Source: Escherichia coli (lineage in GTDB: Bacteria > Pseudomonadota > Gammaproteobacteria > Enterobacterales > Enterobacteriaceae). From it: a stretch of DNA of 64,000 bases. Positions 11,801-14,800 of this stretch are shown here, piece after piece (the stretch's first letter is position 1; the number at the start of each line of letters is the position of its first letter). Made by a program: the position numbers. Where the stretch lies: the NCBI RefSeq assembly GCF_003334765.1, contig NZ_QOWT01000018.1. One strand, given 5' to 3'.

Positions 11801-14800
11801 GCCCTGAGCGGTGTCGTTAACCTGTAACAGTTGCTGCTGCACCGGATAGACCTGCCACCACCACAATGCTGAGGCGACAGCCACTGAACAGGCGATCCCT
11901 GCGATAAACCCTCTTACCGTACTGCCTTGCTTTATCACACTGGCCTGTGGGGGATTCTCTGTCAGACTGCGCACTTCCACTTTCATCTCAGGCAGGCCGG
12001 GCAGGGGAGGCACTACCGCTTCTGGTGTGGAAGATGCCTGTGTTTCCGGGGCATAAATCAGCGTTCTGACCGTGGTCTGTGCGGCGTTCTCAGTGTTACT
12101 CTTCAGCTGGGGTTCAAGCCGTTTACGCGTGTTCTGCATAAAATAGAGCAGATTCTCCACGCGCGGAACGCGCTTCAGTTCCACCTGCTGGAGCTTATCG
12201 CAGATAAGCTGCAATGCCCGCTCTGTGCGGTAGATCAGTGGTAGGTCGGATTCCGCAAAGGAGATTTGCTGACGCAGAATATTGCCGGTTCGGGAGTTAA
12301 ACCAGTCCAGCATTTCAGTACGCGCCGGGCCGCCCTGCGGCCAGAACTTATCCCAGTCGTGGCTTACCATTGCCGCCAGCAGTTCCGCACCTTCGCAGAA
12401 TCCCGCCAGTCCCTGTGTCCGTGTCCGGGCAAGCGTATAGTAGGTGGCGGTGTGTAAATCCACACCGTTGGCTTTAAAAATCGCCAGCGCCAGCGACTCC
12501 ACCAGTTTCCAGTTCAGCTCAGGCTGTGACGGGTGGCTGGCTTTGTTTATTTCCTCGCGGATGGCGCTGAATTCCGGCAGCCAGCGCGGGTCACTGCCGG
12601 TAACGATAGTTTGTGTCAGTACGTTACTATTCATCCCTGCCTCCTCAGTACAGTGTGTCTGACAGACCAAACTGGCTGAACAACCCACCGCTGAACGGGT
12701 TATCTTCCGTGTCGGTATGCACACGGTAGGTCATCGCGCCACCGTCCACGCTAAAGCGCACGGTAAAGTTGCCATCCTGTACTCCGGTCAGTTGTCCGGC
12801 CCCGAACAGGCGGAACTGCGCCCACGGCCCGCTGAAGCTGATACTGCGCGGCGCGTTGCCGCTGGTGCCGATGAGCGTCAGCTTACTTTCGTTGCCTTCG
12901 CGCATGTTGTTAGGCCAGACCAGATGGGCGGTATAGTTACGGCCCTGGCTGTAATCGACTAACTGACCGTCAAGGTTCAGTACACTGCGGCGTTTATTGC
13001 CTGAAAGCGATACCGTTTCCACGGCAAAGGATGTTCCCAGACCGTTCTGTTTGCTGAAGAAGATGTCACGGATTTTCTGCGCAGTTTCCAGTTGCGCAAT
13101 AATATCTTCGCGAATAATGACGTTGTTATCGCCATCCTCCAGACTCAGGTCATTATCGATAAACAGCTTCAGGTTCTGCTGGTAGAAGGTATCCAGTATG
13201 CCATCCGGTTTAAAGAAGCGTTCGAAGGCATCCAGTGAGGCATCCTGTGCAGAACGCGGATTAAACGGATAGTTATTTGCCAGTTGCTCGTTAAACGGTT
13301 TCACCACGCTGTCGCGCCAGTCCACTTCCATATAATGAACAGCCTCCACCATCACCACATGCCAGGCCTGGTCAGTCAGTCTGCCAACCCAGCGGTTGAG
13401 CGGAGCAGGCAGCGTTTTTGCCATCTGGCGGGTGGCGAATATCGGATCGCTGCTGTTCTGATCAAGCCGTAACTGCACGGCTTTCAGCGCCGATTTCCCT
13501 GGTACAGGCGCGTTCTGGATTGCCAGCAGGTAGCGGTGCAACTCGGTGAGTTGCTGATACACGGCCTGCATCGTGCTTTCTTTGTCTTTCTGTACTGCCA
13601 GGGTACTGTTTTCCGGGGCGAATTCATGCCCGAGGCGGGTGAGTAACTGGTAATCCGGCTCTGCCAGGGCTTCCTCCCGTTCTTTGGCAGAGAGTTTTTC
13701 AGAAAAGACGCCTGGCTGTGTGTTGTCACGCAGGACGGTCAGCGCCCGCTGCAAAGGCTGGTCGCCGCTGATAACCTGCTCCAGCGCCCCGGTCAGTTGT
13801 CCGATGGACTCAAAATTGCGGATATTCAGATTGTCCATCCCGGCCCGCCAGGTGGCGGTGTAGTCGCTGATATACTGCTCGGTCAACTGGCGCTGGATTT
13901 CCGCGCGGTCGGCGTCACTGTATTTCACGCTGCGGGTAAGGTTAAGTAGAGGAGCAGAAGGGCCACCCGGTGAACCCGGTGCTGGGTGCGAAGGTGCTGC
14001 CGGGCGAGACGGACCTTGCGCTGCCCGGCCCGTTGCCGTTTATTCTTTCCCGCGCTTACAGCAGCTACCGGACCAGGACGCCCGCGCCGGTGGGGGTGTT
14101 CGGTCCCGGCTGGAAAGCGCCCTTCGATATCCGCTTACAGATACGCGATGAAGGACTGATACTCAACGACAGCGGCGGCAGGAGCATTCACTTTGAGCCG
14201 CTGTTTCCCGGCGAGATAAGCTACAGCCGCAGCGAGTCGTTCTGGCTGGCGCGGGGCGGGGTGGCGACGCAGCACAGCTCGCAGCCGTTAAGCGCGCTCT
14301 GGCAGGTGCTGCCGGAAGATGTTCGCCTGAGTCCGCATGCGTACCTGGCAGCAAACAGCCTTCAGGGGCCGTGGTGGATACTCAGCTGGCCGGAGCGGGT
14401 GCCGGAGGTGGACGAGGTGCTGCCGCCGGAGCCGCCCGCATACCGGGTGCTGACGGGCGTGGTGGACGGCTTCGGGCGGACGCTGGCTTTCCACCGCGAG
14501 GCCGCAGGCGAACTGGCTGGCGAAATCACCAGGGTGACGGACGGCGCGGGTCGCCGTTTTCACCTGGCGCTGAGCACACAGGCGCAGCGGGCGGAAGCCT
14601 TCCGTAAACAGCGCGAGTCTTCCTTATCTTCTCCGGCCGGTCCCCGTTCTGTTTCCTCTTCTTCTTCAGCTTTCCCCGACACGCTGCCCGCCGGTACAGA
14701 ATACGGTGCCGATAACGGTATCCGGCTGGAGGCGGTATGGCTGACACACGACCCGGCATACCCGGATGAACAGCCGACTGCGCCGCTGGCGCGCTACACG

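Follow-up and report, generated by a model that had tools for sequence, protein, structure and literature searches.

A tssM–rhs junction in the T6SS-2 island of Escherichia coli, very probably a deletion scar

In a 64,000-nucleotide stretch of the Escherichia coli contig NZ_QOWT01000018.1 (assembly GCF_003334765.1), referred to below as the window, a truncated tssM gene on the minus strand meets a truncated rhs gene on the plus strand. The locus raises the question of how two gene fragments came to be joined head to head, and of what either of them could still do. From the sequence alone, a preliminary description had put the junction within positions 13900-14010 and had predicted that one deletion removed the 5' part of tssM, the 5' part of rhs, and everything between them. 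The flanking open reading frames (ORFs) and the annotation of an identical locus placed the junction in the E. coli aspV–yafT…yafV island, that is, the island of type VI secretion system 2 (T6SS-2). The junction is very probably the scar of an illegitimate deletion of ~20.5 kb in this aspV-associated island, joined through short microhomology and without a mobile element.

The junction and the missing block

The window was aligned with the intact tssM of strain XJW9B263, the reference for the coordinates given below, and with the full-length rhs of the same allele from strain CH459. In this three-way alignment, the tssM homology (minus strand) reached position 13948, and the rhs homology (plus strand) started at 13947, which is nt 131 of rhs; the two overlapped in a shared 2-bp TA (13947..13948). 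Both breakpoints fell inside the interval that had been predicted. A BLAST similarity search with positions 13700-14200 as the query gave the same boundaries, with intact tssM genes matching bases 1-249 and rhs genes matching bases 248-501. The tssM side reads …GGTTAAGTA|cccagg, the rhs side reads …cccgaTA|GAGGAGC, and the window reads …GGTTAAGTA|GAGGAGC, at reference positions 20249/40724. Every base at the junction was assignable to tssM or rhs, with nothing inserted and no foreign or mobile-element DNA, and the CH459 rhs was 100% identical to the window from nt 131 on. Thus, the alignment against an intact tssM…vgrG-rhs locus, which the preliminary description had named as a check, mapped both breakpoints to a TA microhomology without an insert.

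No insertion sequence (IS) or IS end was found at 13947/13948, the nearest IS being ISAs1, 4.9 kb to the right. An IS-mediated deletion was rejected, since no IS was present at any junction examined. Because the same 200-nt junction was found at 100% identity in 51 of 5,426 complete E. coli genomes, it is not a chance junction.

The flanks of the junction were colinear with the intact locus and in the same orientation. Window positions 1-13948 corresponded to reference 6302-20249 with 99.94% identity, and window positions 13966-30000 corresponded to reference 40743-56773 with 98.3% identity, so that one contiguous block, a gap of ~20,476 bp, was missing. In XJW9B263, the left flank (aspV-yafT-ykfM-hypothetical gene) is the same as in the window. 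It is followed on the minus strand by hcp, vasL, tssM, tssA, vasI, tssH, icmH/tssL, tssK, tssJ, tagH, tssG, tssF, tssE, tssC, a small ORF, and tssB. The plus strand then carries hcp, vgrG, rhs (1410 aa), two small ORFs, and ISAs1, before yafV on the minus strand. The order and the flanks of the intact locus are thus those that the predicted single deletion called for, with the window colinear on either side of one gap.

The missing block comprised the N-terminal ~710 codons of tssM (the 5' two-thirds), 15 whole genes (tssA, vasI, tssH, tssL, tssK, tssJ, tagH, tssG, tssF, tssE, tssC, the small ORF, tssB, hcp, and vgrG), the divergent tssB/hcp intergenic region, and the first 130 nt of rhs. The only T6SS-2 genes left in the island were an hcp of 160 aa (10776..11258, minus strand; recognized by its ORF, annotation, and Pfam), a VasL/ImpA_N-domain gene (11282..12634, minus strand) kept downstream of the tssM remnant, and the tail of tssM itself. 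The full tssA-M/hcp/vgrG set was absent, and within the window, vgrG and 12 of the 13 core genes of the island were wholly gone or reduced to the tssM fragment.

The two remnants and the history of the junction

The tssM remnant (12645..13948, minus strand) keeps the C-terminal ~434 of 1144 codons. Its ORF (12645..13928, 427 aa) gave Pfam matches only to IcmF-related, IcmF_helical, and IcmF_C. Intact TssM, of ~1140 aa, has N-terminal transmembrane/NTPase and periplasmic C-terminal domains, and only the C-terminal 427-434 codons are kept in the window. The N-terminal membrane/NTPase part was absent, and IcmF-related_N sits in the portion that is kept upstream in other strains. The frame was open upstream across the junction as far as a stop at 14040-14042, and no start codon (ATG, GTG, or TTG) was found in it between the GTG at 13928 and that stop. 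The earlier view of a TssM-like frame that lacks a start and runs open into rhs was thereby borne out. The exact 427-aa product was recorded in 4,213 assembly blocks and is also called where tssM is broken in other ways; for the STB20-1 variant of this product, no record was found on look-up. In one other lineage, a full-length tssM with CCAGG changed to CTAGG (equivalent to window ~13951-13955) was split into 739 + 427 aa.

The rhs remnant (13949..18049, plus strand) consists of everything after rhs nt 132. As described before, its frame opens after the TAA at 13943..13945, on which the sequence and the translation agree; this stop derives from the tssM side and bounds the rhs frame upstream. 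Translation could first start at the GTG at 13970, giving an ORF of 1359 aa that ends at 18049. The remnant encodes DUF6531, RHS repeats, the RHS core, the DPLGL motif (17573-17587), and a C-terminal toxin domain of 153 aa after DPLGL (17588..18046), which matched YkuD (L,D-transpeptidase; Pfam PF03734, E=6.1e-5). What was lost from Rhs is a 43-codon N-terminus, MSGKPAARQGDMTRKGLDIVQGSAGVLIGAPTGVACSVCPNSP, which begins MSGKPAARQGD. The preliminary description held that a PAAR-like N-terminus had been lost. The loss of these 43 codons is clear, and their PAAR identity is reasonable and not proven, as residues 2-29 of the intact allele matched the Pfam PAAR_motif weakly (E=0.26), whereas DUF6531 (residues 49-126, E=4e-20) is retained.

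The shell chain of Pseudomonas Tse5 (8cp6_B) starts with PVNPMLGSK, which aligned with PVNPVLGAK of the window, at residue 2 of the GTG ORF; seven residues, VEEQKGH, precede it in the window's rhs frame. The loss therefore coincides almost exactly with the N-terminal delivery fragment, and the shell and toxin are still complete. Photorhabdus Rhs1 (7Q97) and Tse5 (8CP6) are effectors loaded on VgrG by a self-cleaving N-terminal module. The window rhs aligned with them from the shell start and shares DUF6531, the RHS repeats, the RHS core, and DPxGL followed by a toxin. Unlike them, however, it has no N-terminal module, start codon, vgrG, or secretion machine. It is a remnant and not an effector.

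An ORF of 130 aa (18027..18419, plus strand) overlaps the rhs stop and is presumed, from its position only, to be the cognate immunity gene; it had no NCBIfam match. A frameshift splits this ORF in some carriers of the junction, whereas it was intact in the window. The rhs remnant itself was further broken in some carriers, into 1210 + 139 aa in one and 1000 + 348 aa in another.

Concerning expression, a crude consensus scan of 13300-14300 detected no sigma-70-like promoter within 650 bp on either side. The divergent promoter region of the cluster lies inside the deletion; a bidirectional promoter is described for the cluster of enterohemorrhagic E. coli (PMC13141884). The claim that rhs expression would need an internal start agrees with these results, the GTG at 13970 being the first one available. 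Two points can be added to the preliminary description. The divergent promoter region was lost for both remnants, and the NCBI annotation pipeline (PGAP) already labels both the tssM and the rhs halves of the identical locus as pseudogenes with a 'missing N-terminus'. Judged from sequence, both remnants are probably relics, i.e., promoterless and slowly decaying pseudogenes.

The deletion would have spanned tssM codon ~710 to rhs nt 130, including the rhs start codon and the 43-residue N-terminal module, with its tssM end at a site that apparently breaks recurrently. The secretion system would have been dead from then on, and the Rhs remnant, although it encodes a complete shell and toxin, could presumably no longer be started, loaded, or fired. 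The identical junction suggests that the scar arose once, in a phylogroup-A-like lineage near K-12, and was inherited thereafter.

Several observations weigh against this reading. In strain C1, the hcp-vgrG spacer is fused to rhs nt 131, as in the window; in EC416, tssM 19492 is fused to this rhs position, and in STB20-1, the window's tssM site is followed by rhs nt ~897. The rhs ORF is uninterrupted over 1359 codons in the window, which a young deletion or residual use could explain. Furthermore, the lack of transcription of the remnants is suggested by the crude consensus scan and the loss of the promoter region, which leaves a gap in the argument. Since C1, EC416, and STB20-1 share one breakpoint with the window, nested histories are possible, in which an earlier and smaller deletion was followed by a second one that ended at the old junction. 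A first step of the C1 type, in which vgrG and the rhs 5' end were lost, is one candidate; the others are a 558-bp in-frame tssM deletion between the two hot sites described below, and a tssM-tssA deletion. Alleles with exactly one of the window's breakpoints do exist (C1, EC416, STB20-1, and SCU-118, the last with the 558-bp deletion). The flanks of EC416 and STB20-1 are near those of the window, with 5-8 differences per flank outside the divergent yafT region, which points to the same background, and each junction recreates a GTA/TA motif that is reusable as microhomology. However, no carrier of a plausible precursor was found that had the same flanks and an otherwise unchanged locus, and C1 has an extra tssK-hcp deletion of its own. 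Moreover, the second deletion must end 0-3 nt from the old junction, so that nothing is saved compared with two independent uses of a hot site. We regard a two-step origin as unlikely. The single deletion proposed in the preliminary description stands as the simplest and most economical history, which is indistinguishable from nested deletions and not provable from these data.

Two further explanations were considered. If the junction had come from unrelated events, e.g., a horizontally gained rhs cassette placed beside an already truncated tssM, the lower identity of the right flank to the reference would be accounted for, as rhs alleles vary much between strains and some loci have two rhs copies and ISAs1/ISEc1 elements. 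However, the genes lie in exactly the order and orientation seen in intact loci, the junction is free of mobile-element sequence, and a full-length rhs of the same allele matches without a mismatch from nt 131, so that this origin appears extremely improbable. Alternatively, the truncated rhs may still be in use, acting as an orphan toxin/immunity module translated from the GTG at 13970, or serving as a recombination reservoir for other rhs genes. The unbroken ORF, seen in the window and in most carriers sampled, is in keeping with this, as are the GAGGAG 14 nt upstream of the GTG and the start of the remnant only 7 codons before the Tse5 shell start. A Shine-Dalgarno spacing of 14 nt is poor, however; the promoter-like site, the divergent promoter region, vgrG, the whole machine, and the N-terminal module are all missing, and the rhs and immunity ORFs are broken in some carriers, as expected without selection. 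Continued use is thus very unlikely, and a deletion scar in decay remains the favoured explanation.

Recurrent breakpoints and their possible cause

The tssM end of the deletion was not particular to the window. At least nine distinct junctions had their left end at reference positions 20247-20251 of tssM (…GTTAAG|TA|CC; window 13946-13950), and these events involved two or more tssM alleles. The shared sequence was TA when the partner was rhs nt 131 (the window), rhs ~nt 897 (STB20-1 and 15 others), rhs 43413 (LDDI01000013), or rhs ~44233 (L7_E1373_ETEC). It was GTA for tssM 20806 (SCU-118 and a metagenome contig) and tssK 28611 (WP2-S18-ESBL-08), GTACC for the 3' end of vgrG (94-3024), TACC for tssA (S1-CAM-01-C), and G for rhs nt 44 in cM2a, where the left end lies 2 nt earlier. 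In WP2-S18-ESBL-08, where the tssM hot spot is joined to tssK 28611, one open frame of 2163 nt remains; the intact 'tssK' that PGAP calls there is a TssK-TssM fusion artefact.

Other positions were also reused. The site at tssM 20808 (…CAGGTA|ACGTT), 559 bp upstream, was the left end in sequence type (ST) 410-B, in ST540-type genomes (8), and in FDAARGOS_1337, and rhs nt 131 served as the right breakpoint of the window, of EC416-type genomes (6), and of strain C1. Breaks within 400 nt around the first tssM site were found in 114 of 2,634 genomes, compared with 7 of 2,276 for a control tssM window. TA lay inside the microhomology in 18 of the 28 catalogued junctions, against 4.1% expected for random junctions with at least 2 nt of microhomology. 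Ascertainment inflates the count of such events, because several alleles were found by queries containing the hot sites and one by a pattern that forced TA. Junctions found without such bias were non-TA, namely those of TOK-001 (TG and AAC), TUM12355, and K-12. A metagenome scan for …GTTAAGTA followed by a non-C base returned two contigs only, and a search with the junction of the 558-bp deletion was uninformative, as intact genes match it as two joined pieces. The choice of partner resembled short, often imperfect homology (TACC(CA)GGA vs TACCGGA; TAACG).

Based on these observations, it is conceivable, and to us somewhat doubtful, that the tssM breakpoint is no accident, and that a few T6SS-2 positions are repeatedly hit by independent deletions crossing TA, through a sequence-directed breakage or joining activity. 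These positions would be tssM …GTTAAG|TA|CC, tssM …CAGGTA|ACGTT, rhs nt 131, and a few sites of the GGTAAC/TACCGG type. The activity would be a Vsr nick or another nuclease or recombinase with a 2-nt TA stagger, and it would act in lineages including ST410.

As for the cause, a site-specific lesion at …AAG^TA^CC^CAGG may set the tssM end, with the other end picked by short, often imperfect homology. This concerns what caused the breakpoint and is compatible with a deletion scar. The candidate lesions are a Vsr nick, made in very-short-patch repair of the adjoining Dcm site CCAGG, or a cut by other sequence-specific nucleases. The nine right-hand partners, the excess of breaks over the control, and the TA count given above are consistent with such a lesion. 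Moreover, all left ends lie within 4 nt, at or before the Vsr nick position (C|T(A/T)GG); the rightmost of them (20251|20252) coincides with that position, the hot site being immediately 5' of the Dcm site (TACC|CAGG). Deamination does happen here, since one lineage has C-to-T at exactly this Dcm cytosine, which turned TGG into a TAG amber codon in tssM. On the other hand, no Dcm site lies near the second hot site or the reused rhs sites, the local hairpin is no more stable than shuffles, the junctions predicted by a gyrase-type exchange were not observed, and the unbiased TOK-001 junctions and the ascertainment lower the value of the counts. Such a lesion is accordingly a doubtful cause, and the Dcm/Vsr link may serve as a lead that would not explain the other reused sites.

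Other causes were tried and put aside. The hairpin GGGTA-N8-TACCC at the tssM site had a DNA folding z of 0.6-0.7, no better than shuffles, and is an insufficient cause. The 4-nt spread of the left ends had first suggested an exchange by gyrase or topoisomerase IV with a 4-nt stagger. Such an exchange predicts TTAA+GTAC+AGGAGC or TTAA+ATAG+AGGAGC, whereas TTAAGTAGAGGAGC was observed, and it was set aside; quinolone-stabilized cleavage occurs before G (PMC6379681). A restriction cut specific for GTAC was rejected, as neither the second hot site nor the reused rhs sites have that sequence. In the sequence flanking the TA, 12 of 14 sites had C at +2 and 10 had G at +4; imperfect extended homology of the partner sites accounts for most of this motif, which is therefore not an independent signal.

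Distribution, surroundings, and meaning of the scar

The carriers of the identical junction include ML35, NCTC9100, NCTC9087, O157:H16 98-3133, and RM10410. For RM10410, Carter et al. noted a truncated cluster, and they neither mapped the breakpoints nor mentioned the truncated rhs; this strain carries exactly the window's junction. A 21.0-kb rhsG–tssM deletion without mobile elements has been reported in ST410-B/H24 (Cummins et al. 2023, Microb Genom; PMC10711316). Like the window, it affects the same island, has the same gene pair head to head, lost ~21 kb, and is a scar inherited by a whole clade. We mapped the junction in SCEC020026 (ST410-B/H24) to …GGGCAGGTAC|ACGGAAGG, at reference tssM 20808 and rhs ~41826. 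Unlike in the window (tssM 20249/rhs nt 131), tssM therefore ends 559 bp further upstream (…CAGGTA), and rhs resumes ~1.1 kb further in. The window's junction is an ordinary addition to an already known kind of deletion scar, with breakpoints that differ from the published one.

The yafU–yafF scar of K-12 is a remnant of the same aspV T6SS-2 island, with flanks 99.94% and 100% identical to those of the window. However, K-12 MG1655 lacks window positions 10175-19705 and has a GTTCT microhomology at its junction; the missing stretch covers part of the 304-aa gene described below, hcp, vasL, tssM', rhs', and part of ISAs1. The yafU and yafF pseudogenes of K-12 are the two ends of this larger deletion, and over 3.9 kb, the right flank shows 100% identity to the window.

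tssM has been inactivated repeatedly, in the window as elsewhere. ISEc12 in tssM of ST131-C/H30 is a T6SS loss by insertion (PMC10711316), and the loss in O157:H7 is attributed to point-mutation decay (PMC12981562). The clusters of ST131-C/H30 and O157:H7 are otherwise complete, whereas the window has a 15-gene deletion. Several independent internal T6SS-2 deletions per strain were observed in CH459, S1-CAM-01-C, TUM12355, TOK-001, and C1, with tssH joined to rhs and tssK joined to vgrG as examples, and four or five small deletions in TUM12355. The T6SS-2 cluster is repeatedly dismantled across strains.

Around the scar, the ORFs of the left flank were dkgB, yafC, yafD, yafE, mltD, gloB, yafS, rnhA, dnaQ, tRNA-Asp, yafT, and ykfM. 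The tRNA-Asp gene aspV (8003..8079, plus strand) is the left landmark of the island, placed by the annotation of the identical locus and the coordinate offset of the alignment; it is followed by yafT (8407-9192). The retained left end of the island consists of ykfM (9329-9808, minus strand) and a hypothetical gene of 304 aa (9818-10732, minus strand), the product of which had no family match in NCBIfam. On the right, an ISAs1-family (H-repeat) transposase gene (18850..19986, plus strand) closes the Rhs element, followed by yafV, ivy, fadE, and gmhA. Two near-identical copies of tRNA-Asp were present, one at window 1-82 (located after an rRNA operon in relatives) and the other being aspV at 8003-8084. 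Further to the right, rayT (REP-associated tyrosine transposase) and a 579-aa FlhA-like ORF were found at 28245-28742 and 28966-30705, respectively; in a relative, the FlhA-like ORF carries the annotation of a flagellar pseudogene with a truncated N-terminus, beside lafU. This region looks like the known Flag-2 deletion scar, a second relic of a large deletion in the window.

The scar explains why a working T6SS-2 is absent from the lineage despite the T6SS and Rhs 'genes' reported by pipelines. The hcp, vasL, tssM, and rhs matched there are relics, from which neither a secretion system nor a deployable toxin should be scored. The junction (…GGTTAAGTAGAGGAGC…) is a simple and exact marker of the lineage. 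It represents a state between intact strains and the K-12 scar, through which K-12 need not have passed. As a decaying deletion scar, the locus is of low intrinsic interest, and the reuse of breakpoints across lineages is the only aspect worth following up. If that reuse is true, the loss of T6SS in E. coli would be partly channelled by the local DNA sequence rather than purely random, and this would bear on how often and by which route successful clones, such as ST410-B, shed their T6SS.

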